From Calditrichia bacterium (lineage in GTDB: Bacteria > Calditrichota > Calditrichia > RBG-13-44-9 > J075), in NCBI GenBank assembly GCA_965227145.1, contig OZ245730.1:451661-515660 (forward strand): a DNA stretch of 64,000 bases, read 5' to 3'. Shown here piece by piece: positions 1-33,966 of this stretch. The translations under genes and the position numbers were made by a program. Each line of letters starts with the position of its first letter. Within the stretch, counting starts at the first letter, position 1. Under the pieces are notes generated by a model that saw only the letters and a program-made list of their open reading frames with translations, was not told where the DNA came from and ran no database searches.

Positions 1-967
1 GGCCGGGAATGTGAGTACCACGGCAACGTTGCGGCTCACTCAAATTCCGCTGGATGAAAATACGCAAACCACTGCCAGTGTGAACACAACGACGGAAACG
101 GTTGACATCAACATGGTGCCGACCCAGCTGGAACTGCGCATAATTGACGAAGTGACGCTGAACGAAGGCAGTTATACAGCCGGACAGCAAAATCTGGCGG
201 TGTTCGGTTTGGCGTTCAGAAACCCGAATCCTGCCGAAATTATCCGAGTGGATTCGATTCATATTCGTGTTACGGAAAACGAATCCAACGTGCCGGATAT
301 CCAAAATTTGTTGTCACGAATGGAAATGGTCAGTTGGGGATTTTATCAAACAAGCCCGAACGGCAATGCAACACCACCGGATCAATTGATTAGCGTGGCA
401 ATATCTGATCCGGGTTCGAATCCGGTGCAACTGATATTTGACCAGCCGTTGCAGATTCCAGCCGGCGAGAGCGACAGTCTGGTGTTGCGCATCGATTTAT
501 CCGGCGCACAGCTGAACCGCAATTTCAATCTGTCGATCAGCAATGTGTGGGCACGCGGCGCATCCTCAAATCCGGCAGATGTGCTGGACGGTTTCGGCAC
601 ACCGATCATCAATTCCGGTTCGATCAAGTCCGGCGGTATTACCATTCTTTCCGGCGACCCGGAAGTGGCGTTCCGCAACTATCCCAACCCGTTTGGGAAA
701 GACAGCAACAACGGCTCGGGGCTGACCTTTTTCTCATTCGTAATGGAAAGCGGCAGCGAAGCGACCATCAGCATTTATACCCTCACCGGTCAACTGGTCT
801 ATCGCCAAACCGAATCCGGGCTGGATAGCGGCGGCAGGTTGTATAACAGAACGCTGTTCTGGAATGGTAAAAACGATGTTGGGCAAACTGTGGTGAACGG
901 TGTTTACATCGCAATTCTGGAAGCCAACGGGCGGCAGTACACCACAAAGGTTGCATTCGTAAAATAG
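1..967 (+). CDS. secreted protein with type IX secretion (Por) C-terminal sorting domain; 5' end lies upstream of window
   Basis: Reading frame is open from nt 2 with no upstream stop, so the N-terminus is truncated by the window edge. The last ~80 aa (…GKNDVGQTVVNGVYIAILEANGRQYTTKVAFVK) fit the T9SS CTD pattern. Confidence 0.6.
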   Translation, partial: AGNVSTTATLRLTQIPLDENTQTTASVNTTTETVDINMVPTQLELRIIDEVTLNEGSYTAGQQNLAVFGLAFRNPNPAEIIRVDSIHIRVTENESNVPDIQNLLSRMEMVSWGFYQTSPNGNATPPDQLISVAISDPGSNPVQLIFDQPLQIPAGESDSLVLRIDLSGAQLNRNFNLSISNVWARGASSNPADVLDGFGTPIINSGSIKSGGITILSGDPEVAFRNYPNPFGKDSNNGSGLTFFSFVMESGSEATISIYTLTGQLVYRQTESGLDSGGRLYNRTLFWNGKNDVGQTVVNGVYIAILEANGRQYTTKVAFVK

Positions 968-1031: not shown

Positions 1032-2960
1032 ATGAGTAAACTAAGAAAAATAATCCGGCAAATGAGTATATCCATCACGTTAACGCTGTTGATGGGGACA
1101 CATATTACCGGTCTTGCACAGGATGCCGGCTTACAAAACCCGCTGCACGAGCTAGGCGCAGGCGCGCGCGCGTTTTCACTGGGGCGAGCATATGTGGCAA
1201 TGGCGGATGATCCATCGGCCGTTTATTGGAATCCGGCAGGTTTGGAATATGTGCCGCGCATGTCGTTCACGCTGTTCCGCAGTCCGCTGGCGTTGGCCGG
1301 CGTCAGTTACGATTTCATCGGGTTCGTGTTTCCCACCCTTCAATTGGGTAGTGTGGGTGTCGGGTATTCGCGTATTGGCGTGGGTGATATTTTATTCACG
1401 GATGAATCCAACGCAACAGACGGCTCAACATTTAGTTACGATTTCAGCGAAATTTACATCGCTTACGCCAAAAAAATTTGGTGGGGGCTTACACCGGGGT
1501 TAACCTTTAAAGTGCACCAACAATCTATATCGCTTACCGGACAGGATAACAGCGCATTCGGGCTGGATGCCGGATTAATGTATCGTCCCGGTTTTCAGGA
1601 TGGGATTTTCAGTGGCGTTTCCGTCGGGTTCCATTATCAGAATTTGATTAAACCGGAGCTGAATTTTTCGGCAAACAAGGATACACTGGCCAATCAGATG
1701 TCCATCGGGCTGATGAAAGGCATTCCGTTGGGATTAAGCGGAAAATTGAATGTGCTGCTCAGTTATGTGCAAATAGAAAACGGCACCAGCGCATTTCACA
1801 CCGGCGCGGAATACCAGTTCCAGAATATGGGCAACATCCGGGTTGGGTTCGACAATAATACGCCGTCGTTTGGTGCTGGTGTTGAATACAAATTTATGAA
1901 TATCGATTACGCGTTCGGCAACTTGAGCACGGATAACGCATTCAGCGCATCGCACCGTTTTTCGGTGACGTTCAACCTCGGGAAATCCCGCGAGGAAAAA
2001 ATATTGCAGGCTGATGAAAACCGCATCGCCAGAGAAAAAGAATTGGTCGAAAGCACCAAAACGCAGGAACGCCAGCGCCGCATCTCCGAAAGTATGCAGC
2101 GCGGAAAAGATTATCTGGACAACTCAAATTATTTTGAAGCATCGGTTGAATTCCAGCGCGTCATTCAGGACGACCCGTTCAACACTACCGCGCAGGCGCT
2201 GTTCGACAGCTCGCAAGGATTTATCGAACGGGAATTTGAGAAACGCCAGAATGAAGCCATCGAACAAGCTGTGGACGCAGAGTTGGCTGCGAAAACCCAA
2301 CAACAGATTAACATCTATTTTGAACGTGGTCGTAACCTTCTGCAAAATAAGCAATATACGGACGCGTTGATGCAATTTAATCAGGCGTTGGAATTGCGCC
2401 CGGATGACCCGGTGTTAACCGAAGCCGCCAATTCCACCAAACGCCAGTTGAGCGAAGAAGTGCGCACACTGGTGCAGGATGCCCGCCAGAAATTCCGGTT
2501 GGGCAATTATTCGGATGCGTTGCAGGTGCTCAGCGAGGCGATGATTCTTTCGCCCGATCCGGATCAGCCGGCCAGCCAGGCATTGCGTGATGAAATCAAC
2601 ACGCTCACCCGCCGGATTCGCTTGCAGCAATTCCTGATTCGCGGATTGGCGCTGCTCCGTGCGGAAGAATATACCGAAGCGCTGACCGTTTTTGAGGAAG
2701 CGATCAGGCTCGATCCGACCAACGAAACGCTCCGGCAATATCTGGATCAAACCCGATTGCAATTGGGCACACGCCGGGAAAAAATGGATCCGGAATCCGA
2801 GAGCCAATATGCTGAGGCAATGGACCACTTCCTGGCCGGTCGATATGAACGCTCACTGGAAATTTTCCGCAGATTATCGGAAAAATATCCATATAACAAA
2901 AAACTTCAGGATGCAATCGGGGTTGTCGAAGATCGTATAAAACGCAGTAATAATCAATAA
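1032..2960 (+). CDS. outer-membrane beta-barrel protein (FadL/PorV-like) fused to C-terminal coiled-coil/TPR domain
   Basis: Signal peptide. Alternating beta-strand-like N-terminal ~310 aa with the FadL/TodX-family motif (…SAVYWNPAGLEY). C-terminal ~300 aa is Glu/Gln/Arg-rich with repeated TPR-like 34-aa units (YTDALMQFNQALEL, YSDALQVLSEA, YTEALTVFEEAIRL). Confidence 0.5.
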   Translation: MSKLRKIIRQMSISITLTLLMGTHITGLAQDAGLQNPLHELGAGARAFSLGRAYVAMADDPSAVYWNPAGLEYVPRMSFTLFRSPLALAGVSYDFIGFVFPTLQLGSVGVGYSRIGVGDILFTDESNATDGSTFSYDFSEIYIAYAKKIWWGLTPGLTFKVHQQSISLTGQDNSAFGLDAGLMYRPGFQDGIFSGVSVGFHYQNLIKPELNFSANKDTLANQMSIGLMKGIPLGLSGKLNVLLSYVQIENGTSAFHTGAEYQFQNMGNIRVGFDNNTPSFGAGVEYKFMNIDYAFGNLSTDNAFSASHRFSVTFNLGKSREEKILQADENRIAREKELVESTKTQERQRRISESMQRGKDYLDNSNYFEASVEFQRVIQDDPFNTTAQALFDSSQGFIEREFEKRQNEAIEQAVDAELAAKTQQQINIYFERGRNLLQNKQYTDALMQFNQALELRPDDPVLTEAANSTKRQLSEEVRTLVQDARQKFRLGNYSDALQVLSEAMILSPDPDQPASQALRDEINTLTRRIRLQQFLIRGLALLRAEEYTEALTVFEEAIRLDPTNETLRQYLDQTRLQLGTRREKMDPESESQYAEAMDHFLAGRYERSLEIFRRLSEKYPYNKKLQDAIGVVEDRIKRSNNQ

Positions 2961-3099: not shown

Positions 3100-5712
3100 A
3101 TGTTCAAAAATATCTCCAAGGAAGAACTTGTTGTTCCCGCCGCGATGACCCAACTGGCATCGGTTCGCGATTTTATTGAACACATCGGCAAGAAATACAA
3201 GATTTCTCCCAAAATAGTGAATTCCTTTAAACTGGTGGTGGATGAAGCCTGTACCAACATCATCCGGCACGGTTACCAGAACGTAAAGGATGGTAAAATT
3301 ACCATCCGGGCGATTATGCGTCGCCTGAGCGTTACGCTGGTGATCATCGATAAAGGGAAAACCTTCGACCCGCGGCAATTGAAAAACCCGGATCTGGATC
3401 AGTACGTCAAAATCGGGAAAAAGGGTGGTTTGGGCATTTTGATGATGCGCCGCCTGATGGACGATATCCAATACAACATCACTGCCGAAGGCAACGAACT
3501 GCGCCTCACAAAAACCCGCGATGCGGCTATTGAATCGTCTGTTTCTGCATATTACAATTCCATGTCGCTGCGGCGTAAGTTTTTTCTTTTCACATGTTTA
3601 GGGATGTTTTTGGTGACAGCCATCGCATATTTTGCGGTGGTGCCGAGCGTAAAATCCAATGTGCAAAAGAACCTGTTTGCGGATGTCCGGGCGATTGCCC
3701 AGGATTTCGCAAAAACCAATTACGAACTGCTCCGCGAAGAGCAGGATTTGATTCTGGCGGAGAACGCCAAATCGATTCAGCAAAACCGCCCGGATCTGGT
3801 GCAACGCGCAATGATCGCCCGGCAAGATTGGGAAATTATTGCGGTTTATCCGTTTGATCGCGAAATGATCAACCAAAAATTGTTGATCGATGAATTGAGC
3901 GTGATGGAGAGCGATAGCCAGATTACCATTTACGAATCCGAAGTGGATGGCCGGTTGTGCTATTATTTTATTGCACCCGTTCGCCCGGAAACCGGCGATA
4001 TCGATCCGATCGGTTACGCCCTGCTGCAGGTGGACGACGAGCATATTCAAAATAAAATTGCCGGCGAAAATGTTCGCTGGGTTATTTTCCTCGGTATTTT
4101 GATGTTTGGCGGCATCCTCGGGATTGGCTGGATGGTCACGCAAATTACCAAACCGTTCCACCGATTGGCAGAATGGGTGCGGCAAGTTGCCCGGGGACAG
4201 GTGGATCAGGAGGAAATTGACATCGACGCCCGCGATGAAATCGGGGAAATTGCCCAGGCTTTTAGCGAAGTGACCAGCAAATTCCGCGAAGCGCAGGCAA
4301 ATGTGATCGAGCAACAGCGGCTCCAGAAAGAGTTGCAGGTTGCCCAGGAAATTCAGCAAATGTTGCTGCCCAACGATTTCCCGGATGTGGTCGGATACGA
4401 TATTACATCGTATTATCAATCCGCAAAAGAAGTGGGCGGGGATTTGTTCGACTTTGTGCAAGTCGATGACCAGAGCATCGGCATTTGCGTTGCAGACGTT
4501 TCCGGTAAAGGCATTCCCGGATCGTTGGTGATGACGATGATCCGCACATCGCTGCGGCTGGAAGCGCGCGCCAACAAAAATCCGGCCGAAGTGCTCACCA
4601 AAGTGAACAGTTTTGTGACAGACGATATTCGCCGGGGCATGTTTGTCACCATGTTTTATGTGATTCTCGATTCCCGCGAACGGACGGTTTCATTTGCCAG
4701 CGCCGGTCACAACCCGATGATCGTGTATCGCGGAAAAAGCAAAGAAACCTATTACCTCAATCCATCGGGTTTCCCGGTGGGCATTACTTTGCCGGATATC
4801 AAATTATTTGGCGAACGGGTGCAGGCAGACCGCATCCGGCTCCACCCGGATGACATTTTGGTGCTCTACACCGACGGCATCACCGAAGCGATGAACGCAC
4901 AGCGCGAGCTGTATGGTGATGAGCGATTTTTATCCGCCATCCGTAAATTCGGGCATTTGGATGTTGTCGAATTTGTGAACGCGCTGAAAAATGATATTTT
5001 GACATTTACCGGCGGTTTCGAACAAAACGACGATATTACATTGGTTGCCATCAAAGAAAACATGGCGGCTGTTGATGTAAAAGTGAACGGTTTCCAGGAT
5101 ATGTTCGAAGCTGTTCAGGAATACGATGAATTGACCGTGGCGGAAGCCTGCAAAATCGCCGGAATTTCGTCATCCACTTTCTACCGCTATCGCAAAATTT
5201 ACGAAGAAGGTGGCTACGATTTGCTTCGCGAAATGCTTCACGGATACACCAACCTCGGTTTGCGCCATATGAGTGTGGAATTGAAAACGAAAATGTATGA
5301 CATCATCCGCAGATACCCGCATTACGGCCCGAAAAAAATCAGCGATTTGCTGAATACGGAAGAATACGGATTTGTGGAAATGCCGCCGGTGCTGATTTAC
5401 GAAGAACTCAAACGTGCCAAACTGAATACCAAAGAACGCCGGGAATCGTTTGTGCAGCGCGGTGGAAAACGGCGCCTCAAACCGCCGGGAACGCCGCTGT
5501 TGACGCTCGATGGCGAAGTGCTGGTCGGTTTCCGCAGCGAAGATCAGCCGGCGATAGATATGCCGTTTGCGCCCGCACCGATAAATTCATCTGTGCGCAG
5601 CAAAGAAAAACTGATTTCCGCACGCGGAAAAGCGCATAAAACAGCATTTGGAAATCTTCAGCGATATGAAGAAACCCGTGTCGATCAACCGGATAAAGAT
5701 GACGAAAATTAA
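3100..5712 (+). CDS. multidomain partner-switching protein: RsbW-like anti-sigma HATPase + 2-TM sensor + HAMP + PP2C/SpoIIE phosphatase + C-terminal transposase-type HTH tail
   Basis: N-terminus matches anti-sigma regulatory kinases (VDEACTNIIRHGYQ…GGLGILMMRRLMDDI). Two hydrophobic helices follow (FLFTCLGMFLVTAIAYFAVVP, WVIFLGILMFGGILGIGWMV), then a HAMP-like linker. PP2C motifs are present (DFVQVDD…GICVADVSGKG, AGHNPMIVYR, LYTDGITEA). The last ~190 aa carry IS3 OrfA-like and HTH_21-like helices (LTVAEACKIAGISSSTFYRYRKIYEEGG, RRYPHYGPKKISDLLNTEEYGF). Confidence 0.75.
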   Translation: MFKNISKEELVVPAAMTQLASVRDFIEHIGKKYKISPKIVNSFKLVVDEACTNIIRHGYQNVKDGKITIRAIMRRLSVTLVIIDKGKTFDPRQLKNPDLDQYVKIGKKGGLGILMMRRLMDDIQYNITAEGNELRLTKTRDAAIESSVSAYYNSMSLRRKFFLFTCLGMFLVTAIAYFAVVPSVKSNVQKNLFADVRAIAQDFAKTNYELLREEQDLILAENAKSIQQNRPDLVQRAMIARQDWEIIAVYPFDREMINQKLLIDELSVMESDSQITIYESEVDGRLCYYFIAPVRPETGDIDPIGYALLQVDDEHIQNKIAGENVRWVIFLGILMFGGILGIGWMVTQITKPFHRLAEWVRQVARGQVDQEEIDIDARDEIGEIAQAFSEVTSKFREAQANVIEQQRLQKELQVAQEIQQMLLPNDFPDVVGYDITSYYQSAKEVGGDLFDFVQVDDQSIGICVADVSGKGIPGSLVMTMIRTSLRLEARANKNPAEVLTKVNSFVTDDIRRGMFVTMFYVILDSRERTVSFASAGHNPMIVYRGKSKETYYLNPSGFPVGITLPDIKLFGERVQADRIRLHPDDILVLYTDGITEAMNAQRELYGDERFLSAIRKFGHLDVVEFVNALKNDILTFTGGFEQNDDITLVAIKENMAAVDVKVNGFQDMFEAVQEYDELTVAEACKIAGISSSTFYRYRKIYEEGGYDLLREMLHGYTNLGLRHMSVELKTKMYDIIRRYPHYGPKKISDLLNTEEYGFVEMPPVLIYEELKRAKLNTKERRESFVQRGGKRRLKPPGTPLLTLDGEVLVGFRSEDQPAIDMPFAPAPINSSVRSKEKLISARGKAHKTAFGNLQRYEETRVDQPDKDDEN

Positions 5713-5847
5713 AAATCGTCCGGGTTGTTTTGAGTAAATGATGTTGTATCTTTGACAATATCATTATTCACAAAAATGATTTTTTTCTGTATAAAATGAA
5801 TATAAAGTTCGATGATAAAAAAGATATAATGACTGACGGAGGATTGA

Positions 5848-6630
5848 ATGGAAGGAATTCAAGTCTCAACGCTTAACGCCGGATCCCACAACCAGATTTC
5901 TATTATTAAAGTGGGCGGTTATATTGACACAACGACCTCCGCCGAAGTAGAGCGTTCGCTGAATGCTTTGCTCAAACAGGGGCGTTACCAAATCATAATT
6001 GATTTGGGTGCTGTCGACTACATCAGTAGCGCCGGTTGGGGGATTTTCATCAGTGAAATCAAATCGATCCGGGAAAATAACGGCGATCTGAAACTGGTGC
6101 AGATGATCCCGGATGTATATGAAATTTTTGAACTTCTGGAATTTCATCACATTTTGGATGTTTACGACTCGGTGCAGGAAGCGGTGAACAAATTTGAAGA
6201 ATCGCAATATGTTGAAGTGGTTTCGGAATCCCGGGTTAAAGCGCAGCCGAAAGAAGCCGCGCCAAAACCGGTAACGAATACCGCACCAACAGCGCAAACG
6301 CCACCCACACCACGGTACGAAAATCGTGAGCAAGCGGCAACGGCAGCTGCGCCAAAACTGCCCAATTTACCCAATTCCGCTGCAACAGCCGCTACGGAAG
6401 AGCCGCGTAAACAATCCATAATAGATACGGCAACCCTTCCTGTTGAGGAAAAAGTGAAACACATCGTCCGGCAAAACCCGGAATTCGGTGCATACAAAAT
6501 CAACAAACGGTTGAATACACCGGATTATGGTTTTGCGCGAATCGGTTGGTTCGGCGTGCGTTCCCTGCTCAGTCAGTTGGGATTAAATTCCCGCGGCAAA
6601 CGCCGTGAATTTGCGCAAAAATCCAGATAA
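5848..6630 (+). CDS. STAS-domain anti-sigma-factor antagonist (SpoIIAA/RsbV-like) with Pro/Ala-rich linker and transposase HTH_21-like C-terminal tail
   Basis: The first ~110 aa are a STAS fold (…IIDLGAVDYISSAGWGIFIS…). A low-complexity P/A/T linker follows. The tail (VRQNPEFGAYKINKRLNTPDYGFARIGWFGVRSLLSQLGL) is clearly homologous to the tail of the upstream 870-aa protein. Confidence 0.7.
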   Translation: MEGIQVSTLNAGSHNQISIIKVGGYIDTTTSAEVERSLNALLKQGRYQIIIDLGAVDYISSAGWGIFISEIKSIRENNGDLKLVQMIPDVYEIFELLEFHHILDVYDSVQEAVNKFEESQYVEVVSESRVKAQPKEAAPKPVTNTAPTAQTPPTPRYENREQAATAAAPKLPNLPNSAATAATEEPRKQSIIDTATLPVEEKVKHIVRQNPEFGAYKINKRLNTPDYGFARIGWFGVRSLLSQLGLNSRGKRREFAQKSR

Positions 6631-6702
6631 ACCGGTTTTTGTCGCGCATTCTGCGAAATTGCAAACATAGTTATGCCGGATTTTTCCGGCAAAAAAAGTT
6701 AA

Positions 6703-6737
6703 AGACAGGCTTCTGAAGCACTGTCTTTGCCTTTTTA
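6703..6737 (+). terminator. putative Rho-independent terminator after STAS gene
   Basis: Stem gacag…ctgtc (6704-6708 / 6721-6725) followed by ttgccttttt. Confidence 0.4.
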
Positions 6738-6868
6738 GGGGATTTGCCAATTTCAGAAACTTTTAGTGGTTTTCCGGGTAAACAATCTGAACGTTCCGGA
6801 TTCGGATCAACGCTGTGTTGTCAACAAAAAAGCCAAAACAAACGCTAATCTGCCAATGTAAATTCGAT

Positions 6869-7540
6869 ATGAAATTATCTCCCAAATACCTGTTTTTACT
6901 GATGATATTCGCGGTATTGTTTGCGACGCAGTCCGTAGTTGCCCAAAACCCGGTATCGGTTGCGCGCATCAAATACGACGGCGGCGGAGATTGGTATGGA
7001 AACCGCACCACATTTGTCAATCTGTTCCGCTTCATGCGGGAAAACAACAATGTGGAAACAACCGAACGGGAAATTGTGCTTTCAATTACCGATAAAGATT
7101 TTTTCAAATATCCGATTGCCTATATTGCCGGACATGGCAACATCAAATTTTCTGCGCCGGAAGCAAGTCGCTTGCGCGAATATCTGATAAAAGGCGGCTT
7201 TCTGTGGGCAGATGACGATTACGGGATGGACCCGTATTTTCGCCGGGAAATGAAAAAAGTTTTCCCGGAATCGGACTGGGTTGCGCTGCCATTTTCGCAC
7301 CCGGTTTTTCACATGCAGTTTAATTTTTCCAATGGATTGCCAAAAATCCACAAACACGATGGCGGCCCGCCGGTTGCATTCGGGCTCTTTTTTGAAGGAC
7401 GAATGGTGGCATTTTACAGTTACAATACCGATATCAGCGATGGCTGCGAGGATGCCGACGTTCACAACGACCCGCCGGAAGTGCGCCGTTCCGCCCTGCA
7501 AATGGGAACCAATATTTTATTGTGGGCAATGTTGCAGTAA
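6869..7540 (+). CDS. secreted hypothetical protein (DUF4159-like)
   Basis: The ATG at 6869 gives a signal peptide (MKLSPKYLFLLMIFAVLFATQSVVAQ). The frame is conserved to 7540. The upstream in-frame extension from 6815 is unlikely to be coding. Confidence 0.45.
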   Translation: MKLSPKYLFLLMIFAVLFATQSVVAQNPVSVARIKYDGGGDWYGNRTTFVNLFRFMRENNNVETTEREIVLSITDKDFFKYPIAYIAGHGNIKFSAPEASRLREYLIKGGFLWADDDYGMDPYFRREMKKVFPESDWVALPFSHPVFHMQFNFSNGLPKIHKHDGGPPVAFGLFFEGRMVAFYSYNTDISDGCEDADVHNDPPEVRRSALQMGTNILLWAMLQ

Positions 7541-7586
7541 AATGTCCGGTTCAAATTTCGCAAATAATTAAAAAGAAGTACAAATA

Positions 7587-10500
7587 ATGAGCAATACAAT
7601 CGATCCCATCTATCACGAAACGCACGAAAAAGTGTTGGCGGTAAACCGCAAATTCCGGCTGATCCACGTTGGCGCAGCGCTGTTGCAATTTGTGTTTCTG
7701 GCAATTTGCGTGTTTTTGGGATTTCTGTTTATCGAAGTATTGTTCGATTTGATTACGCCGCTGCGTCTGCTGTTTTGGGTGCTGTTGGCTGGCGGTCTCG
7801 GTTATTTTCTGATCAAAGAAATTGTGCCGAATTTGCGCCGCGCATTTTCGCCGGCGGAGCAGGATCTGTATCAAATTTCCCGGCTGATCGGCGATGAAAC
7901 CCCACAGGTGCAGGATGCACTTGTCAATTTTTTGCAAATTTATCGCGATGAAGGCATTGCCACTCACGCAGCGTTCAAAAATCTCTCGCTAAAACAACTT
8001 TACAACACATTCCGCGATGTCGATTTCGGCAAAATTCTCAATCTGGCCGGCTGGAAACGTCCCGGCATTCGGCTGCTCGCCGCGTTGGGCGGATTTGTGT
8101 TTATGTTCCTGCTGTTTCCCGGCGCAACCAACCAGACTTTTTTGAAAATTTTGCATCCGACTCAATCGTTCGAACCGCCGTTTCCGGTCACGCTAAAAAG
8201 CATTTCCGGCGAACAAGTAGTGCTCAAAAACGATCCGGTAACGCTGGAAGGTGAATTCACCGGCGTAATGCCATCGCGATTATGGCTGGTGCTGGAAAAT
8301 TTCGCCGATGACAGCAAATCGCCGGAACTGGAACGACTGGAAGTGCCGCTGCGCAGTGGAAATCGTTTCGAATATGAATTGAAGCATGTCAAAAATCGAT
8401 TCAACTATTGGTTTGAAGCGCAATTGGATATGCGCGGATTTGAAAATCGTCCCGCCAAAAGCGATATGAATGCGGTGCTGGTTAAGGAGCGTCCGTTTAT
8501 CCGCGAGTTGCAGGCAAAGCTGGCATATCCGGTTTACACGCGATTGCCCGAAAAATTTCTGCCGCTCAACGATGGTGAAGTTACCGCGCTGAAAGGCACG
8601 ACGGTTGACATTCGCATCGAGGCAAATAAATCGCTCACCGGCAGTTGGTTTCAGTTCGACGATTCCACCCGGATTGAGCTGCAAACCAATGGAAACCGCG
8701 CAACCGGGCAATTTACGGTTCGGGAAGACGGGCAATATCATGTCGGTATTCGCGATGCGGATGGCATTGAAAATTACCAACCGGTGCAATACGCCGTTTT
8801 TGCGCTGCAGGACGAACTACCGTTTGTGGAAATCACCCGCCCGGGACAGGATCTGGAATTGGGCGAAGAGCTGGATTTGCCACTGCTAATCAATCTTCGT
8901 GACGATTACGGATTTACAAAACTGAGCCTGAAGGGGCGGCACATCAAAGCCGGCTCCACCGGCGATACCAGCGAATTTGCTATCGATGTGCCGTATCAGC
9001 GTATCGAAGCGACGCGGGCGCTGGCGGATTATCGCTGGAATTTGCGCAATTTCTATCTCTCGCCGGATGACTTCGTCGAGTATTTCGCCGAAATTCGCGA
9101 TAACGATGTTATCACCGGACCCAAAACGGCACGCAGCCAAACGTATGTGCTCCGCTTGCCATCGCTGATGGAAGTGCTGGCCAAAGCGGATGAAAATTTA
9201 TCCGAACAATTGGAAGACACCCGCGAAATTGCCGAAGAAACCAAAGCGCTGAAAGAAAAGCTCGAAGAAATAAATCGCGAAATGAAGCGGGAAGAGGAAC
9301 TGACCTGGGAACGCAAACAGCAAATTCAGGAGCAGGCTCAAAAGCAGCAGGAAAATCTGGATAAAATGCAGGAATTGCGCGAAGAACTGGAACAGGTGAT
9401 CAGCGATCTGGAACAGCGCGATGTGCTCAGCCAGGAAACGCTCGAAAAATATATGGAACTCCAGCAGATGATCGAGGACCTCGCTTCGCCGGAAATGCTG
9501 GAAGCGTTGAAAGAGCTGCAAAAAGCGATGGAAAACGCCAACATGGAAGAAATTAAGGAAGCAATGGAACGCTTCGAATTTTCTGTTGAACAATTTGAGG
9601 AACGCATCGAGCGAACGTACGAGTTGTTCAAACGTGTTCAACTGGAACAGAAAATGGACGAGTTGAACAAAATGGCCCAGGAAATGCTGGATGCCCAAAA
9701 GCAAATCAACGAGCAGCTTCAGCAGGAAAATTTGTCGAAAGATCAGCAGGAACAACTCGCCCAACAGGAAGAAAATCTCGCCGAAAACAGCGATGCGATG
9801 GAAGATGCGCTGGAAAAAGCAACTTCGGAATTTGAAGAAATGATGCCGGAAATCGCTGAATCGCTCGAAAAAACGCGCGAATTTATGGACGAGCAGCAAA
9901 TCAGCGAACAGATGCAGCAGATGCAACAGCAAATGCAGCAGGGGCAGCAGCAAAACGCTCAAAAAAGCGGCGAAAATGTCCAAAAACAATTGGAGATGGT
10001 GCAAAGCCAAATGCAGCAAAATCGTCAGCAAATGCAGCAACAACAGCAGCAGGAGTTGATGCAGGCGATGCAAAAAGTACAACAAGATTTGCTGCGGTCT
10101 TCATTTCAGCAGGAAAAATTGGTGGAGCGCTCTCAAAATTCGGATATGGCATCCAACAGCATCAACCAAACCGCCCGCGAGCAGGCTCAGTTGCGGGAGA
10201 ACGCCGGAAATATCGTTCGGCAAATGCTGGAAATTTCCAACAAATCATTTTTTATGCAGCCGGGAATGAGCCAAATTATGCAATCGTTGATGGGAAATAT
10301 GGAAAATGCCCTTCAGGGATTATCGAACCGCAACCCGCGCGGTGCGGCGCGATCGCAGCAAAAAGCGTTGGGCAATTATAATGAAGCAATCATGTCCATG
10401 CAAAGCTCGATGAACAGCATGATGCAATCGCAATCCGGCACCGGATTTGAACAATTTATGCAACAAATGCAGCAAATGGCCGGACAGCAGGGGCAACTGA

Positions 10501-11009
10501 ATCAAGAATCGATGAGCATGTTCCAGCAGGGGCAACGTCCCGGCGGACAAGTTCCGGCTGAACAAATGGCGCGAATGGCAGCCCAACAGCAGGCGATCCA
10601 AAAATCGCTGGAAAAATTGAATGACGAAATGGGCAATCGCAACGATGTGCTCGGCAGATTGGGCGAACTGGGCGAGGAAATGGAAAAAGTGGTTGAGGAA
10701 CTGCAGCGGCAGCAACTCAGCCCGAAAGTGATTGAACGCCAGCAACGGATTCTCAGCCGGATGCTCGATGCTCAAAAATCGGTTCGCGAAAAGGAACATT
10801 CCAAAAAGCGGCAGGCGGAACGGGAACAGGGTGTAACCGCAAAATCACCGCCGCAGCTAAAACGGGAAATGCTCGAACGCGAAAATCAGCTCCGCAAGGA
10901 AATGCAGGAAGCGCTGAAAGAAGGTTATTCGTCCGAATATAAAGAATATATTAAATTGTATTACGAAATTCTCTCACGGCAGGGCGAAACCGCCGGCGAA
11001 AAGAAATAA
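7587..11009 (+). CDS. large membrane-anchored protein with beta-rich middle region and very long Gln/Glu-rich coiled-coil C-terminal half
   Basis: N-terminal TM helices (LLQFVFLAICVFLGFLFIEVLF, LLFWVLLAGGLGYFLI). The 1140-aa frame is uninterrupted. The C-terminal ~600 aa are an E/Q/M/K low-complexity coiled coil (QMQQQMQQGQQQ…). Confidence 0.6.
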   Translation: MSNTIDPIYHETHEKVLAVNRKFRLIHVGAALLQFVFLAICVFLGFLFIEVLFDLITPLRLLFWVLLAGGLGYFLIKEIVPNLRRAFSPAEQDLYQISRLIGDETPQVQDALVNFLQIYRDEGIATHAAFKNLSLKQLYNTFRDVDFGKILNLAGWKRPGIRLLAALGGFVFMFLLFPGATNQTFLKILHPTQSFEPPFPVTLKSISGEQVVLKNDPVTLEGEFTGVMPSRLWLVLENFADDSKSPELERLEVPLRSGNRFEYELKHVKNRFNYWFEAQLDMRGFENRPAKSDMNAVLVKERPFIRELQAKLAYPVYTRLPEKFLPLNDGEVTALKGTTVDIRIEANKSLTGSWFQFDDSTRIELQTNGNRATGQFTVREDGQYHVGIRDADGIENYQPVQYAVFALQDELPFVEITRPGQDLELGEELDLPLLINLRDDYGFTKLSLKGRHIKAGSTGDTSEFAIDVPYQRIEATRALADYRWNLRNFYLSPDDFVEYFAEIRDNDVITGPKTARSQTYVLRLPSLMEVLAKADENLSEQLEDTREIAEETKALKEKLEEINREMKREEELTWERKQQIQEQAQKQQENLDKMQELREELEQVISDLEQRDVLSQETLEKYMELQQMIEDLASPEMLEALKELQKAMENANMEEIKEAMERFEFSVEQFEERIERTYELFKRVQLEQKMDELNKMAQEMLDAQKQINEQLQQENLSKDQQEQLAQQEENLAENSDAMEDALEKATSEFEEMMPEIAESLEKTREFMDEQQISEQMQQMQQQMQQGQQQNAQKSGENVQKQLEMVQSQMQQNRQQMQQQQQQELMQAMQKVQQDLLRSSFQQEKLVERSQNSDMASNSINQTAREQAQLRENAGNIVRQMLEISNKSFFMQPGMSQIMQSLMGNMENALQGLSNRNPRGAARSQQKALGNYNEAIMSMQSSMNSMMQSQSGTGFEQFMQQMQQMAGQQGQLNQESMSMFQQGQRPGGQVPAEQMARMAAQQQAIQKSLEKLNDEMGNRNDVLGRLGELGEEMEKVVEELQRQQLSPKVIERQQRILSRMLDAQKSVREKEHSKKRQAEREQGVTAKSPPQLKREMLERENQLRKEMQEALKEGYSSEYKEYIKLYYEILSRQGETAGEKK

Positions 11010-11044
11010 TTGATTGTGAAAATGGCAACTTCCCCGTTGCGTGA

Positions 11045-13891
11045 ATGAAATTGAGCCAAGGGTATTTCGATGGCTTCGGGAATGTAGATTCTGTGCAGAA
11101 AATCAGGGTGCAAATGGTGCGATATCATCGCCCAAATAAGATAATCAGCAGATGTTGTGCAGCTTGCCTGTTAAGCTGCATTCTTTTTTTCGGTGATTTT
11201 GGTGCTGTTTTACAGGCGCAAACACCGGAAAACGATTTGTGGATCCGGTTGGAAAAAGCGGAAAAACAGCCATTCCCTTTCAAAAATATCGAATATTATC
11301 CGTTAAAACACCCCAAAGTTGCGCTGGTGCTCAGCGGTGGCGGCGCGCGCGGATTGGCGCACATCGGCGTGCTGAAGGCGTTTGAAGAGCATAAAATTCC
11401 GGTTGATCTGATCGTCGGAACCAGTATCGGCAGCATCATCGGCGGGTTTTATTCCGCCGGATTCAGCGCGGAGGATATTCGCCGCAACATCAAAAGCATC
11501 GATTGGAACAGTATTTTCAACGATCAAACCGATCGTCCGCTGATGTTTATTTCCCAAAAAAGTATTCCCCGGCGCCATTTGGTGCAATTCCGGCTGGATG
11601 GCGTGATGCCGGTTATTCCCACCTCCATTTCTCAGGGACAACGCATTTTTCAAACGCTTTACAACAAATTGCTGAAAGCGAGCTATCAAACAACTGATTT
11701 TGATCAACTGAAAATCCCGTTTCGGGCGGTGGCGACGGATATCATCAGCGGGCAAAAAGTGGTGTTGGCAGAAGGCGATTTGGCGGAAGCGATCAACGCC
11801 AGCATGGCTTTTCCGCTGCTGTTCGCGCCGGTGGAAATTGACGGAATGCGGCTGGCGGATGGCGGCATTACCGATAATTTGCCGGTTCAGGTTGCGCAGG
11901 ATGAACACGCAAACATCGTAATTGCGGTAGATTGCACATCGGAATTGCGGGCATCGGACGACATCAACGCGCCGTGGGAAGTTGCCGATCAGGTGACATC
12001 CATCATGATGAAAAAGCCGACGGAGGAAAGCCGGCAGTTGGCGGACGTGCTCATCATGCCGGAACTCGGCGATTTCAAAGGCGGCAGCTTCGAATTTTCG
12101 GATAGTTTGGTGGAATTGGGATATCAGGCTGCGCTAACACATATTTCCGAAATTGAACGGAAAATAGTCGAATCCGATTCCCAACGTATCAATGAAAACC
12201 GGTCAATTGGCGAGATCAGCGAAATCCGTTATGAGGGGCTATCAAAGGAAACATTTCAACTGCTTCGCTCGCTGTTGCTTTTCCATGCCACCAGCGAAAT
12301 ACCGTTGGCGGTAAACGATAATCAATTACCGGTTACCACTACATTTATGCCTCAAACAATGAGTGATATTCCGGTCAGCTACCGCGATGTGCTGGACAAT
12401 ATGCGCATCATTTATCAAAGTGGATATGTTCAGGATATTCAGGCGCATATTTCCATGGTTGAGAACCGGCGAATTCTGACATTTATTGTTCGGGAACAGC
12501 CGGAAATTGAATCTGTTGTCATCGATGCACACCCGGCATTACCGGATAGCATTGTTTCGAAAATTCAAAATGAACACGCCGGTAAGCGACTGAATATATT
12601 GAGTTTAGTGAAAAACCTTGAACGACTGCAGAACGCAATTTTTCAGGAGGGCTATTCGCTAACCGATGTGTCGGCAATCCGTTTTCTTCCGGAATCGAAT
12701 GAATTGCACATTTCGCTGAATAATGGGCGGGTTGACGATATTCGGATTCATGGAAACGATATCACCCGTAATTTTGTGATTTTGCGGGAAATGCCCCTGA
12801 AAGTAGGCGATTTATTTGAAAACGCAAAAGCTTCGCGCGGCATCGAAAATATATATGGTACGGGTTTGTTCGACAGGGTGCTGATCAATCTGCAAAAAGA
12901 AGATTCGCTGAATATAATGGTCATCAAAGTGAAGGAAAAACGCTATCAGGTTGCCCGGCTTGGTGCGCATTATTCGACAGAGCGGTTGACCGAAGGGTTT
13001 GCAGAACTGCTGGCGGATAACTTTTTGGGAACCCAAACCAAAATGAGCGTTTTTGGCGCTGTGGGTGAGTTTTCGCGAAATCTGGAACTGCGGTTTTATA
13101 CGGTCCGGCTGTTCAGAAGCTATCTGACTGCCAGTGTCTCAACATATTATACCGAACGACAGGATCGTTTTTATCGCAATTTCAACCGATTTCCGGATTA
13201 TGAAATTATCCGGCGGGGATTTCGGTTTTCCGTGGGCCAGCAAATTCAGCGCCTCGGTATCATTTCAGTTGAATTGCGGGCAGAAGAAATTGATCTCGGT
13301 GCGCCGGAGGACGACTTTTCTAAAAATAATTTTCGCTTACGTTCGATTTCCGTCAATTCTGTAGTGGATAAACGCGATAAATTGCCATTCCCGGAAAGCG
13401 GAATTTACAACCGTTGGTCCTGGGAAGCTGGCAGCCAGCGGCTATTGGGTGGCAGCGAGCCGTTTACGCGGGTATTTTTGGGATTGGAAGGGTATTACAA
13501 TCTCCAAAAACAATTAAATTACCATCCGTACGTTTACGCCGGCAGCGCAGATTTAACATTACCGTTTACCGAATATTTTTTCTTTGGCGGTCAAAACAGT
13601 TTCCCCGGATTGCACGAACGCGAGATCTTTGGCAGACAATTTATCCAGGCCGGGCTGGATATGCGGTATAAGCTGGAATGGAACCTACCGGTTGAAGCAT
13701 TTTTAATCAGCAATTATTCAGTTGGCGCAGCCTGGGAAGAGCCGGATGAAGACATATCGACAAATGATTTTGTCCAATCGGTTTCTGCATCTGTTGCAAT
13801 AAATTCCCTGCTCGGGCCAATCCAATTAACGTATGCATATGTGTTCAAGCGTGACGGCAAGTTGCAGTTCTCAATGGGTTTTGATTTTTGA
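11045..13891 (+). CDS. patatin-like phospholipase fused to POTRA/Omp85 beta-barrel (type Vd autotransporter, PlpD-like)
   Basis: Patatin oxyanion and nucleophile motifs are present (LSGGGARGLAHIGVLKA; VGTSIGSIIGG), and so is the catalytic Asp (LADGGITDN). The C-terminal half alternates hydrophobic and polar residues and ends in an aromatic terminal strand (…LQFSMGFDF). Confidence 0.7.
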   Translation: MKLSQGYFDGFGNVDSVQKIRVQMVRYHRPNKIISRCCAACLLSCILFFGDFGAVLQAQTPENDLWIRLEKAEKQPFPFKNIEYYPLKHPKVALVLSGGGARGLAHIGVLKAFEEHKIPVDLIVGTSIGSIIGGFYSAGFSAEDIRRNIKSIDWNSIFNDQTDRPLMFISQKSIPRRHLVQFRLDGVMPVIPTSISQGQRIFQTLYNKLLKASYQTTDFDQLKIPFRAVATDIISGQKVVLAEGDLAEAINASMAFPLLFAPVEIDGMRLADGGITDNLPVQVAQDEHANIVIAVDCTSELRASDDINAPWEVADQVTSIMMKKPTEESRQLADVLIMPELGDFKGGSFEFSDSLVELGYQAALTHISEIERKIVESDSQRINENRSIGEISEIRYEGLSKETFQLLRSLLLFHATSEIPLAVNDNQLPVTTTFMPQTMSDIPVSYRDVLDNMRIIYQSGYVQDIQAHISMVENRRILTFIVREQPEIESVVIDAHPALPDSIVSKIQNEHAGKRLNILSLVKNLERLQNAIFQEGYSLTDVSAIRFLPESNELHISLNNGRVDDIRIHGNDITRNFVILREMPLKVGDLFENAKASRGIENIYGTGLFDRVLINLQKEDSLNIMVIKVKEKRYQVARLGAHYSTERLTEGFAELLADNFLGTQTKMSVFGAVGEFSRNLELRFYTVRLFRSYLTASVSTYYTERQDRFYRNFNRFPDYEIIRRGFRFSVGQQIQRLGIISVELRAEEIDLGAPEDDFSKNNFRLRSISVNSVVDKRDKLPFPESGIYNRWSWEAGSQRLLGGSEPFTRVFLGLEGYYNLQKQLNYHPYVYAGSADLTLPFTEYFFFGGQNSFPGLHEREIFGRQFIQAGLDMRYKLEWNLPVEAFLISNYSVGAAWEEPDEDISTNDFVQSVSASVAINSLLGPIQLTYAYVFKRDGKLQFSMGFDF

Positions 13892-16051: not shown

Positions 16052-16055
<4 letters not shown>
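15768..16055 (+). CDS. gatC: Asp/Glu-tRNA amidotransferase subunit C
   Basis: About 95 aa with the GatC-type N-terminus (MKVTVETVEHIAKLAKLTFSD). RBS aaggaagag lies upstream. The stop overlaps the kdsB start. Confidence 0.65.
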
Positions 16056-19259
<3,204 letters not shown>

Positions 19260-19280
19260 AATTATATAAAACAACTGCTT

Positions 19281-19838
19281 ATGATCTGTGCATCTGAACA
19301 ATCTGCTGAACTGTTTCGCCGGGCAGCCAACGTCCGGGCGATCTTGGTTGATGTGGATGGTGTGCTCACCAAAGGGCAAATTATCCGAACGGATGCCGGA
19401 GAGCAGGTAAAAGTATTCAATTCGCTCGATGGATTCGGGCTGCGACTGGCAAAATTTTCCGGATATATCATCGCAATTATTTCTGCAAGTGGCAGCGAAG
19501 CGATTCGGTTCCGGGCGGAGGAAATCGGGTTCGATGCGATTTATCTCGGCAGTTACAGCAAAATCGACGCCTACCGGGATCTCAAATCAAAATTTAATCT
19601 GGATGATTCGCAAATCTGTTATGTCGGTGACGACCTCCCGGATATACCGCTGTTGGAGCTGGTCGGATTGCCCATTGCCGTTCACAATTCGGCGGCAGAT
19701 TTAAGTGCCATTACGCCGTTTCAAACGCGTCGCCGAGGCGGCGAAGGCGCAGTTCGCGAAGTGATTGATTTTATTATGTTTGCGCAAGGCAAACGCGATG
19801 AAAAAGTCGAAACGATACTTAAATCGTTTGGCAGGTAA
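19281..19838 (+). CDS. kdsC: Kdo-8-phosphate phosphatase (HAD family)
   Basis: HAD motif I (ILVDVDGVLT) and motif IV (YVGDDLPD). Length ~185 aa. Confidence 0.75.
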   Translation: MICASEQSAELFRRAANVRAILVDVDGVLTKGQIIRTDAGEQVKVFNSLDGFGLRLAKFSGYIIAIISASGSEAIRFRAEEIGFDAIYLGSYSKIDAYRDLKSKFNLDDSQICYVGDDLPDIPLLELVGLPIAVHNSAADLSAITPFQTRRRGGEGAVREVIDFIMFAQGKRDEKVETILKSFGR

Positions 19839-19841
19839 ATT

Positions 19842-20846
19842 ATGAATGGTTCAGTACAGCCAAATACAATTTTATCCGAAGAACAAAAGCGGCTGATCAA
19901 TATCGCCCGACGGGTGATTGTCATGGAAGCGGATGCTATCCGATTGTTATTAAAGGAGATAGATCATCGTTTCCTTAGCGCTGTGGATATGATTTTCGAT
20001 TGTAACGGCCGGGTAATCATCACCGGATTGGGCAAATCCGGCGCGATCGGCAGAAAAATTGCCGCAACGCTGGCATCCACCGGAACAGCTACCTATTTCA
20101 TGCATCCGACCGATGGCGTTCATGGCGATATCGGCATTGTTCACAAAGATGATGTGATCATTTGCCTCTCCAAAAGTGGCGAGTCAGAGGAATTGTTTAA
20201 TCTGTTGCCGATTTTCAAACGGATTGGCGTGCCGGTCATTTCGATTACCGCAAATGCAGAATCGGCGTTGGCAAAGCACAGCAGCATCGCGCTGACCATT
20301 GCAGATTTTGAGGAAGCCTGCCCGCACGATTTAGCACCAACAACCAGTTCCACCGCAATGCTGGCGCTCGGCGACGCTTTGGCGATGGCATTGCTGGAAA
20401 AACGCCATTTCACCCGCGAAGATTTTGCATTTTTGCATCCGAGCGGTGCTTTGGGCAAACGCCTGCTGCTAAAAGTGGATGATATTATGGAAACCGGGGA
20501 ACACATTCCGGTTGTTCAGCCAACCGCCCAAATGAAAGATGTAATTTTGCAAATGACCGCAAAGCGCGGTATTTGTATGGTTACGGATCCTGAAAACAGG
20601 GTGGTCGGCGTCGTAACCAACGGCGATTTGAACCGGTTGGTTGAAAAAACGGAACACTTTTTCCAAATTCCCGTGGAAGATGTGATGAATCGGTCGCCAA
20701 AAACGGTACAGAGTGGCACTTTGGCTTATACGGTTTACAAAAAAATGGAAAAATACCGGATCATCGCGATGCCGGTGCTGGATCAAACCGATCATTTGAT
20801 TGGCGTTATTCATTTGCATGACATAATGCGCACAGGTATTTTCTAA
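19842..20846 (+). CDS. kdsD: arabinose-5-phosphate isomerase (SIS domain + tandem CBS)
   Basis: SIS motif (VIITGLGKSGAIGRKIAATLASTG) followed by two CBS-like repeats. Kdo context. Confidence 0.8.
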   Translation: MNGSVQPNTILSEEQKRLINIARRVIVMEADAIRLLLKEIDHRFLSAVDMIFDCNGRVIITGLGKSGAIGRKIAATLASTGTATYFMHPTDGVHGDIGIVHKDDVIICLSKSGESEELFNLLPIFKRIGVPVISITANAESALAKHSSIALTIADFEEACPHDLAPTTSSTAMLALGDALAMALLEKRHFTREDFAFLHPSGALGKRLLLKVDDIMETGEHIPVVQPTAQMKDVILQMTAKRGICMVTDPENRVVGVVTNGDLNRLVEKTEHFFQIPVEDVMNRSPKTVQSGTLAYTVYKKMEKYRIIAMPVLDQTDHLIGVIHLHDIMRTGIF

Positions 20847-20873
20847 ACTTAAATAGAGTAAAAATAAGACAAT

Positions 20874-21446
20874 ATGAATCGTTTTTTTTGGATGCTGACA
20901 GTTATTGCAACGCTGTTTTTTATGACCGGTGCGTGTAGCAAAATTGAGGATGAGCCTGCATCAACCAATCCGCCGGATTCGTTACAGGAAGTGCCGGATC
21001 AGGAAAGTTGGGGCTCGATTATCGTTATTTCGAAAGAAGGGCGACGATTTGCACGGGTTTGGTCGGGATATGTTGCGGTTTACAATAAACAAAATCAAAC
21101 GATTTTGAAAGATAGCATCCACGTTGATTTTTACAACCGCGAAGGGCAGCACAACTCTGTTCTCACCGCGCAGGAAGGCGTGGTTGATAACCAAACCGAA
21201 AATCTCCGGGCGATGGGTAACGTGATTGTCATTTCCGATAGCGGCGTGGTCTTGGAAACGGAAGAGCTGCTCTGGGATAATCAGAAACAAAAAATTATCA
21301 GTGATGTGCCCGTAAAATTCACGACTGATGAAGATACGTTAGTCGGCGATTCATTTATTTCCGATCCCGAGTTGGTTAATTACGAAATCCGTAATGCCCG
21401 CGGTTATTCAAAACGAAAAATGCAGTTGGAAAAACCCCGAAATTGA
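20874..21446 (+). CDS. lptC: LptC-like periplasmic LPS export component
   Basis: N-terminal membrane anchor and a beta-jellyroll-sized periplasmic domain. Sits immediately upstream of the OstA-like and lptB genes. Confidence 0.5.
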   Translation: MNRFFWMLTVIATLFFMTGACSKIEDEPASTNPPDSLQEVPDQESWGSIIVISKEGRRFARVWSGYVAVYNKQNQTILKDSIHVDFYNREGQHNSVLTAQEGVVDNQTENLRAMGNVIVISDSGVVLETEELLWDNQKQKIISDVPVKFTTDEDTLVGDSFISDPELVNYEIRNARGYSKRKMQLEKPRN

Positions 21447-22543: not shown

Positions 22544-22546
22544 CTT

Positions 22547-33884: not shown

Positions 33885-33966
33885 GCCCGGGTGGTGGAAT
33901 TGGCAGACACGCATGACTTAGGATCATGTGCCGAAAGGCGTGGAGGTTCGAGTCCTCTCCCGGGTA
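33885..33966 (+). tRNA. tRNA-Leu (anticodon TAG)
   Basis: Acceptor stem GCCCGGG/CCCGGGT with a G1-U72 wobble. D-arm GGTGGAATTGG. Anticodon stem CATGA/TCATG with loop cTTAGga. Long variable arm GCCGAAAGGCGTG. T-arm GGAGG-TTCGAGT-CCTCT. Discriminator A. CCA is not encoded. Confidence 0.85.

Follow-up and report, generated by a model that had tools for sequence, protein, structure and literature searches.

The usual view of partner-switching systems is that a sigma factor or a protein partner forms their end point. A pair of adjacent genes in a 64,000-nucleotide stretch of the genome of an uncultured Calditrichia bacterium (GenBank assembly GCA_965227145.1, contig OZ245730.1, positions 451,661 to 515,660; 'the window' denotes this whole stretch) raises the question of what helix-turn-helix (HTH) modules of transposase type might be doing in such a system. 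The upstream gene encodes a membrane sensor kinase/phosphatase (the long protein) and the downstream gene a STAS protein, and both proteins carry modules of this type in their C-terminal parts. A sequence-only reading of the window had described an RsbW-HAMP-PP2C fusion and a STAS antagonist with homologous, transposase-derived tails; the open reading frames (ORFs; 3100..5712 and 5848..6630) are exactly as given there, and Pfam bears out the kinase, HAMP, PP2C and STAS domains. From sequence comparison we conclude that the tails stem from an old domestication of the N-terminal, noncatalytic DNA-binding region of a transposase and are not the remnant of an insertion sequence (IS). Halves of a transposase DNA-binding domain are thus found on an enzyme and on its predicted STAS substrate throughout at least one whole phylum.

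Ancestry of the HTH modules

The two tails in the window are 29% identical over 65 amino acids (BLASTP, E = 8e-9). Profiles of the orthologues (A1, 27 long-protein C-termini; A2, 30 STAS tails) align over 65 columns with a probability of 98.1% and E = 1.2e-13 (hhalign), which confirms that the tails are homologous to each other. AlphaFold2 (AF2) models the C-terminal module of the long protein as two helical bundles. The first, HTH1, has helices at residues 680-687 and 691-714; the second, HTH2, is the paralogue of the STAS tail and is modelled with a predicted local distance difference test (pLDDT) score of 86-95.

HTH1 scores above the Pfam gathering score for HTH_28 (27.4 bits versus 25) and for HTH_23 (26.9 versus 24.6), both at about 3e-6, and lies 0.5 bit under that for HTH_29; when scanned as an isolated module it reaches 32.2 bits with HTH_28 and 29.2 bits with HTH_23. 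Its recognition helix reads SSSTFYRYRK in the window and is near-invariant in the family (S-P-S-T-Y-Y-[RK]-Y-K-K, with the S, Y and K/R columns 100% conserved). HTH_32 matches HTH2 of the long protein in 26 of the 27 orthologues (best 5e-8; under the gathering score). Positions 11-114 of the 284 in the NCBIfam IS481 profile (NF033577) match residues 675-782 of the long protein with E = 3.9e-8, at a score of 33.2 bits that is far under the family cut-off of 224, and the NCBIfam IS3 profile matches the same C-terminal region with E = 2.7e-5. Aligned with a set of four authentic, annotated IS481-family transposase N-termini retrieved from plasmids, HTH1-HTH2 runs in register across both modules (hhalign, 89%, E = 2.2e-6). 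An IS481-family transposase from Burkholderia is strikingly like HTH1 (VSKACKVMGLSRDTFYRYQNAVAEGGVDAL versus VAEACKIAGISSSTFYRYRKIYEEGGYDLL).

The STAS tail is further from the transposases. In the window it scores 13.5 bits with HTH_21 (PF13276) against a gathering score of 28.1; HTH_21 is found sub-threshold in 12 of the 30 orthologues (best 4e-5), and three orthologues carry a precomputed PF13276 match. The IS3 profile gives E = 0.0057, and direct alignment with the IS481 N-termini by hhalign is not significant (E = 0.12). The transposase ancestry of this tail is therefore inferred by way of HTH2 of the long protein. The sequence-only reading had assigned both tails to the HTH_21 region of IS3/IS481 transposases. 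For the long protein the IS481 and IS3 relationship stands; HTH_21 is not the best family (sub-threshold matches in nine of the 27 long-protein tails), all such matches are under threshold, and the link of the STAS tail is weaker and mostly indirect. Judged by profile scores, the best family descriptors are HTH_28/HTH_23 for the first module and HTH_32 plus the IS481 N-terminus for the second. All transposases lie much further from the STAS tail than HTH2 of the long protein does, and this suggests as the simplest history that the long protein captured a transposase N-terminus once and that HTH2 was then duplicated onto the STAS protein.

When the C-terminal module was compared with solved structures, neither a search by sequence nor a Foldseek search against the PDB gave a significant match; the top-ranked, non-significant Foldseek matches were the DNA-binding domains of the TnsB and MuA transposases and Pax paired domains, with the SETMAR DNA-binding domain also listed. 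The absence of a DDE domain, stated in the sequence-only reading, was borne out: Pfam detects no DDE/rve domain in the long protein of the window or in seven longer relatives (1100-1400 amino acids), which rules out a hidden or degenerate DDE domain in the latter. The scanned long proteins of KSB1 type terminate in tetratricopeptide (TPR) repeats, and the extensions of Calditrichia type have no Pfam match.

Conservation and age of the fusion

The sequence-only reading had proposed a survey of the tail in related genomes. Among species-representative genomes the C-terminal module is present in 128, from Calditrichota, KSB1, Zhuqueibacterota and some metagenome-assembled genomes with doubtful labels, and the HTH2 tail is found on 120 of 120 listed STAS orthologues. 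Synteny of the pair extends over about 80 species-level genomes from at least two phyla (Calditrichota, KSB1 and allies), including the cultured Caldithrix abyssi, and architecture and synteny are kept at 45-80% protein identity. Pair architecture was read in 80 fetched loci with local domain hidden Markov models (HMMs) derived from the alignments. Where the contig is long enough, the loci have, essentially without exception, the same pair: kinase-sensor-HAMP-PP2C-HTH1-HTH2-motif followed by STAS-linker-HTH2. In 77 of the 80 the STAS gene immediately follows the long gene, and in 78 loci the two genes are on the same strand with a median gap of about 90 nucleotides. Orthologues of the long protein are full-length across Calditrichota (50-79% identity), as are those of the STAS protein, in both cases with the tail, and the tails are as well conserved as the catalytic domains.

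A weak, AT-rich inverted repeat (25 nucleotides, 76% complementary; 4985-5009 / 5746-5770) roughly flanks the DNA for the C-terminal module of the long protein. It is what could be cited in favour of a recent IS remnant, or of an assembly or annotation artefact that extended both reading frames; it is probably due to chance, since the fusion is conserved phylum-wide. No IS-like terminal repeats flank the tail-coding segments, the locus is single-copy and syntenic across genomes, and the GC content is unremarkable. An IS remnant is refuted by the conservation of the module in 128 genomes, about 80 of them syntenic at species level, by tails conserved like catalytic domains, by the missing DDE domain in the window protein and seven relatives, and by a STAS tail to which HTH2 of the long protein is closer than any transposase is. 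The missing terminal repeats and the deep conservation rule out a recent remnant, and we attach practically no probability to this explanation. A domesticated transposase module, as claimed by the sequence-only reading, thus has support from the profiles and from the syntenic genomes, and the examination for flanking repeats that might have overturned it was negative.

The kinase/phosphatase and its STAS partner

The features of the locus are collected in Table 1. The kinase domain of the long protein scores 99.5 bits with HATPase_c_2 (Pfam cut-off 27.4) and matches NCBIfam RsbW at 1.3e-17; the SpoIIE domain scores 172.7 bits (Pfam cut-off 25). The ATP-binding motifs of the kinase are intact (N-box EACTN at residue 49, G1 IIDKG at 82 and G2 GGLG at 109), as are the metal-binding motifs of the PP2C domain (GGDLFD at residue 446, DVSGKG at 466, TDG at 591 and NDD at 643), and all are invariant among homologues. 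In the STAS protein the STAS domain scores 72.3 bits (Pfam cut-off 22.6), the anti-sigma factor antagonist family TIGR00377 matches with 69 bits (cut-off 53.45) and the predicted phosphorylatable-serine loop, DYISSAG (residues 57-63, nucleotides 6016-6036), is also invariant. As the N-box, G1 and G2, the metal motifs and the serine loop are all present and invariant, the phospho-switch looks functional.

Table 1. Predicted features of the kinase/phosphatase-STAS locus and its neighbours, in window coordinates (aa, amino-acid residues; T9SS, type IX secretion system)
Feature	Position	Strand	Basis
Large surface-protein gene, 3' end, with T9SS-type C-terminal domain	11-967	+	Weak CHU_C match
Outer-membrane beta-barrel and TPR protein	1032-2960	+	TPR matches; weak FadL-type match
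Long-protein gene (870-aa membrane sensor kinase/phosphatase)	3100..5712	+	ORF; domains by Pfam and NCBIfam
RsbW-type GHKL serine kinase, aa 12-138, N-terminal, cytoplasmic	3133..3513	+	HATPase_c_2 1.8e-28
Transmembrane segment 1, aa 160-185	3577..3654	+	Kyte-Doolittle maximum 2.29; long helix in AF2 model
Periplasmic alpha/beta sensor domain, aa 186-323	3655..4068	+	AF2 pLDDT ~90, helix and strand mixed
Transmembrane segment 2, aa 324-349	4069..4146	+	Kyte-Doolittle maximum 2.33
HAMP domain, aa 344-388	4129..4263	+	PF00672 4.7e-9, 36.9 bits versus cut-off 25
PP2C/SpoIIE serine phosphatase, aa 456-652	4465..5055	+	PF07228 1.1e-50
HTH1, transposase-type, aa 670-714 of the long protein	5107..5241	+	Pfam HTH matches at aa 670-711; IS481 HTH1 alignment
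Long-protein HTH2 (paralogue of the STAS tail), aa 720-786	5257..5457	+	hhalign versus STAS tails; four helices in AF2 model
Linear motif RGGKRRLKPPGTPLLTLDGEVLVG, near-invariant, long-protein aa 788-811	5461..5532	+	Alignment conservation
C-terminal extension, aa 812-870, acidic, disordered, variable	5533..5709	+	Poorly conserved; pLDDT <40
STAS-linker-HTH2 gene (260 aa)	5848..6630	+	ORF; orthologues 54-67% identical, including Caldithrix abyssi Calab_0680
STAS domain, aa 13-112	5884..6183	+	PF01740 3.3e-20
Flexible low-complexity linker, Pro/Ala/Glu/Ser-rich, aa 119-195	6202..6432	+	Unconserved, gappy
HTH2 tail of the STAS protein, aa 196-258	6433..6621	+	Homology to HTH2 of the long protein
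DUF4159 gene, downstream neighbour	6815-7540	+	Pfam 2e-59; in 44 loci
DUF4175 gene, downstream neighbour	7587-11009	+	Pfam 3.6e-10; in 43 loci

Two transmembrane segments, called by Kyte-Doolittle analysis with a 19-residue window, give a topology of cytoplasmic kinase, membrane span, periplasmic sensor, membrane span and cytoplasmic HAMP-PP2C-HTH1-HTH2; both enzymes and the HTH modules therefore lie on the cytoplasmic side. The sensor domain is probably Cache-like, and sCache_3_2 matches are on record for relatives in this region. Pfam finds no Response_reg (receiver, REC) match in the long protein, and the input is a transmembrane-sensor-transmembrane-HAMP unit. In relatives the C-terminal extension is replaced by several hundred residues. 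The linker of the STAS protein has a median length of 65 residues and a composition of 15% Pro, 12% Ala, 11.5% Glu and 11% Ser. It joins a STAS domain with a mean net charge of -9.5 to a tail with one of +8.5 (isoelectric point 10.6); the mean for HTH2 of the long protein is +4.9.

The motif following HTH2

In the long protein HTH2 is adjoined by an invariant motif, KPPGTPLLTLDGEV, that the sequence-only reading had overlooked. The peptide RGGKRRLKPPGTPLLTLDGEV (residues 788-808) is the most conserved stretch of the protein apart from the catalytic cores: the K, PGTPLLT and G columns are 100% conserved, and the motif exceeds the HTH modules in conservation. It has a mean net charge of +3.8 and is absent from the STAS protein. 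Both AF2 models leave it disordered (pLDDT 31-69), as is typical of short linear motifs that depend on a trans-acting partner. Docking within its own chain is unsupported (pLDDT 31-39 in the full-length AF2 model), and if the STAS tail docked on the motif, the two should strictly co-occur; this is ruled out by long proteins that lack the motif, whose partners are tailed in L085 and L088 and untailed in L082 and L087 (relatives described below).

Strand beta1 of the DDE domain, which carries the first catalytic Asp (PGdLLHID, PGeLVHVD, PGxLvHvD-like), starts 18-22 residues past HTH2 in canonical IS481 transposases; in the long protein PPGTPLLTLD starts 19 residues past the end of HTH2. Unrelated ORFs contain the IS481-derived signature at a frequency of 7.5e-5 per residue, corresponding to about 8e-4 matches expected in the positional window, an estimate made post hoc. 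The profile alignment to IS481 ends at HTH2 and does not reach the motif (hhalign). The motif is possibly a relic of beta1, to judge only by its position and this short signature.

Relatives of the module

When 1.84 billion cluster representatives were searched exhaustively with an HMM, 649 matched at E<=1e-3. The classes described here come from the 150 of these matches that were listed, sorted by local HMMs, Pfam and source names. About 54 of the listed proteins have the full module and the motif, and others have the kinase-Cache-HAMP-PP2C-HTH1-HTH2 architecture without the motif. In Krumholzibacteriota (P0303; L082) the chain itself carries three STAS domains, about 100 residues past HTH2. 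The L082 protein (5001-9317; Candidatus Krumholzibacteriota, GCA_034520215.1) thus reads kinase-sensor-HAMP-PP2C-HTH1-HTH2-STASx3, as do P0299, P0300 and P0310; two extra free, untailed STAS genes lie downstream of the L082 fusion gene. The triple fusion is a Rosetta-stone link between the HTH module and STAS.

The free STAS partners of the motif-less relatives are tailed weakly in L085 and clearly in L088 and are untailed in L082 and L087. The long protein of L088 has kept HTH2 and lost HTH1, and its STAS partner is still tailed. A ParA/MinD-type ATPase (CbiA/AAA_31/MipZ) overlaps the downstream end of the long gene in L081 (7562-8377), L082 (9314-10048) and L085 (7865-8683); such an ATPase is found downstream in most of the motif-less contexts and is absent there in the motif-bearing Calditrichota loci.

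Some STAS proteins among the listed matches bear two HTH2 tails. One of them (P0348; L084 5883-7034), with a Glu/Arg-rich coiled segment between its tails, is encoded by the last gene of a polysaccharide export cluster with Polysacc_deac_1, Bac_transf, Poly_export and Wzz/GNVR genes. P0320, P0326, P0338, P0340, P0337 and P0365 are family-2 processive-type glycosyltransferases of 600-1700 amino acids with an N-terminal tandem (HTH_28/HTH_32)x2; these are probably membrane proteins and represent a further recurrent fusion of the module to a protein that is no transposase, and where the source is named they come from Patescibacteria. Docking of the STAS tail on glycosyltransferase HTH modules was considered and is irrelevant here, the fusions being from Patescibacteria.

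Genomic neighbourhood

Homologues of the large surface protein are found upstream of the pair in 54 of the 80 loci and homologues of the TPR outer-membrane protein in 64, and this upstream pair is kept in the genomic contexts of the motif-less relatives. One relative context has a giant surface protein with Big_1/Invasin repeats and an outer-membrane protein with a faint PorP_SprF match. In Bacteroidota a PorP-like anchor typically accompanies type-B T9SS cargo (PMC9143113). By its weak matches only, the upstream pair resembles such a cargo and anchor. The DUF4159 and DUF4175 neighbours are conserved within Calditrichota. The envelope cluster around the kinase/phosphatase and its STAS partner (11-2960 and 6815-13891) consists of the T9SS-type protein, the TPR barrel, the pair itself, DUF4159, DUF4175 and a patatin-POTRA-Omp85 protein. 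As the two upstream genes are conserved even in relatives of KSB1 and Krumholzibacteriota type, the arrangement suggests that the sensor monitors or regulates the upstream surface system. Likewise, given its tight linkage to these two upstream genes, the pair may regulate the cell surface in Calditrichota and KSB1.

Several other features of the window were noted. A degenerate 21-nucleotide-periodic repeat in the DUF4175 gene (9660-10063) encodes a Gln/Met-rich (QMQQ) low-complexity stretch. An envelope housekeeping cluster at 16052-23320 comprises a CMP-Kdo synthetase-type cytidylyltransferase, CTP synthase, a Kdo-8-P synthase-type enzyme, a HAD phosphatase, a SIS/CBS isomerase, LptC, an OstA/LptA-like protein and an ABC ATPase, and is followed on the opposite strand by the Lon protease (23317-25668). 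A tRNA-Leu (33885-33967) and a tyrosine integrase (34194-35417, minus strand) precede a region whose GC content is mosaic (0.33 to 0.59) and which encodes a Ser/Thr protein kinase, an SH3_3 protein, AAA_24 and AAA_15/23 ATPases, an SNF2 helicase, a Macro-domain protein and an N6/N4 DNA methylase with a BglII-type endonuclease; the whole (33885-~60000) looks like an integrated genomic or defence island.

Proposed mechanism and alternatives

By analogy with characterized systems, the pair is most likely a membrane-anchored phospho-switch of the SypE/SypA or HsbR/HsbA kind. In this scheme the long protein would sense a periplasmic cue, probably tied to the products of the two upstream genes, via its Cache-like domain and HAMP, and sensing would shift the balance between its RsbW-type kinase and its PP2C phosphatase. 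Both enzymes would act on Ser60 or Ser61 of the DYISSAG loop in the co-transcribed STAS protein. The latter would be the output, with its acidic STAS domain, flexible linker of about 75 residues and very basic three-helix HTH2. Its phospho-state would decide whether STAS-HTH2 is held at the membrane kinase or is free for DNA, where it would control transcription alone or jointly with HTH1-HTH2 of the long protein. Who phosphorylates whom, the direction of signalling, the DNA binding and the regulated targets are what we infer here.

The last steps require that the exapted modules still bind nucleic acid, the reading we favour, and that phosphorylation of the STAS protein gates access to DNA without a dedicated sigma factor. 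Homology, charge and conservation make DNA binding by the modules plausible. HTH1 meets family thresholds, the bipartite order and spacing are preserved, the recognition helix of HTH1 is near-invariant and the charge is sharply partitioned between STAS domain and tail, all of which argue that nucleic-acid binding has been kept. Several observations weigh on the other side. No conserved operator-like motif was found in three intergenic regions over 64-78 loci, where the recurrent k-mers were start-codon context, and no repeated sites resembling terminal inverted repeats were found within 34 kb. The long protein is integral to the membrane, so that its modules could reach DNA only there, and HTH1 is near neutral in charge (+0.5). 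The STAS protein bears just half of the bipartite module, and all matches of HTH2 to Pfam families are under the gathering score. In L082 and L087 the long protein has HTH1-HTH2 yet the STAS partner is untailed, so the tails are not strictly interdependent, and the Patescibacteria glycosyltransferases carry similar modules next to a known activity that is independent of DNA. On balance, the sequences lead us to put output to DNA at somewhat less than an even chance. Its most elaborate form is doubtful: here a phosphorylation-gated STAS-HTH2 would act with a membrane-tethered co-regulator, a transposase domain being split over enzyme and substrate, to control the adjacent surface locus, and PPGTPLLTLDG would be a re-used beta1 relic that recruits a partner.

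Protein-protein docking in place of DNA binding would account equally well for several of these observations. The STAS tail would dock on HTH2 or HTH1-HTH2 of the long protein and tether the substrate by its kinase and phosphatase, and the output would lie elsewhere, for example with a sigma factor or another partner of the kinase domain or of STAS. HTH2 paralogues on both partners, co-inherited in 77 of 80 loci, and a disordered linker of this length are what such a tether would look like; the Krumholzibacteriota fusion gives the HTH2-linker-STAS geometry covalently, L088 has lost HTH1 and kept HTH2 together with a tailed partner, and the lack of an operator near the operon fits as well. Against this, HTH1-HTH2 is retained where the free STAS partners are untailed (L082 and L087), which points to a role beyond docking a tail, and the strongly basic tail and the basic HTH2 should repel one another if nothing, such as nucleic acid, bridges them. 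We regard docking, the main alternative, as rather unlikely. Docking and DNA binding are not exclusive, as co-binding on DNA is possible. A conventional switch, in which the RsbW-type domain sequesters a distant sigma factor that STAS relieves and the HTH modules are accessories, for example for non-specific nucleoid association or localization, would account for the RsbW and anti-sigma-antagonist profile matches of the two proteins. Fused HsbR/CrsR-type proteins can indeed bind RpoS (PMC6482189), and the ParA/MinD-type ATPase adjoining the system in relatives hints at localization. However, no sigma factor gene is found among the annotated neighbours in the window or among the called genes of the relatives' contexts examined, and one would expect accessory modules to be less conserved than catalytic domains; we consider this explanation improbable.

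Implications and comparison with known systems

The names of the two proteins in public annotations do not go beyond 'SpoIIE family protein phosphatase' and 'STAS domain-containing protein', and no description of these tails was found in the searchable literature. If the modules bind DNA, the pair would connect a periplasmic signal directly with the chromosome by way of STAS serine phosphorylation, and would be a clear bacterial case of a transposase DNA-binding domain that was exapted into signalling, duplicated and shared between partners. If they instead tether the STAS protein, they would represent a new way to keep a substrate beside its kinase and phosphatase. Calditrichota and KSB1 are abundant in sediments and, to our knowledge, hardly studied as regards signalling; the cultured Caldithrix abyssi (Calab_0680 and its upstream gene) makes the system directly testable.

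The sequence-only reading had regarded an anti-sigma kinase and a PP2C domain on one chain as unusual, which is contradicted by SypE (PMC10120452) and HsbR/CrsR (PMC6482189), both already characterized. SypE of Vibrio fischeri (kinase-REC-PP2C) likewise has an N-terminal RsbW-type kinase, a C-terminal PP2C domain and an input module between them, with a STAS gene nearby (PMC10120452). Shared with SypE/SypA are also the serine on a small STAS protein that is an output and not an upstream gate, and the genetic link to a cell-surface system. The input of SypE is a cytoplasmic receiver, whereas here it is a periplasmic sensor between two transmembrane segments followed by HAMP, and both partners here carry HTH modules that SypE/SypA lack. 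HsbR/HsbA of Pseudomonas aeruginosa and CrsR/CrsA of Shewanella oneidensis similarly combine a bifunctional PP2C and kinase/anti-sigma protein with a STAS partner whose phospho-state sets binding (PMC6482189, PMC5085249). SypA and HsbA are downstream outputs, and their phospho-state selects their partners (PMC10120452, PMC6482189). HsbR and CrsR differ in their REC-PP2C-kinase order (PMC6482189) and in being soluble, with FlgM, HsbD and RpoS as protein outputs and no modules of DNA-binding type.

With the N-terminus of IS481 transposases the long protein shares the bipartite HTH1-HTH2 in the same order and spacing, and a PG..L.LD signature at the position of DDE beta1. Unlike these transposases, the pair has no DDE/rve core and no terminal inverted repeats, and its genes are single-copy, syntenic and vertically conserved. 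If its HTH modules bind DNA, the long protein would be an inner-membrane sensor that contacts DNA at the membrane, as ToxR, CadC and TcpP do. ToxR-type proteins have an N-terminal winged-helix domain of OmpR type and no enzymatic domains, and are not homologous to it. The Pax paired domain, CENP-B and SETMAR are also cases of a bipartite transposase HTH re-used without catalysis by a host protein. Those are eukaryotic transcription and chromatin proteins for which DNA binding has been demonstrated, whereas the hosts here are a bacterial membrane kinase/phosphatase and a STAS protein for which it is predicted. What is new, in comparison with all of these, is a SypE/HsbR-like switch that has a Cache-HAMP input and exapted transposase HTH modules on both partners.

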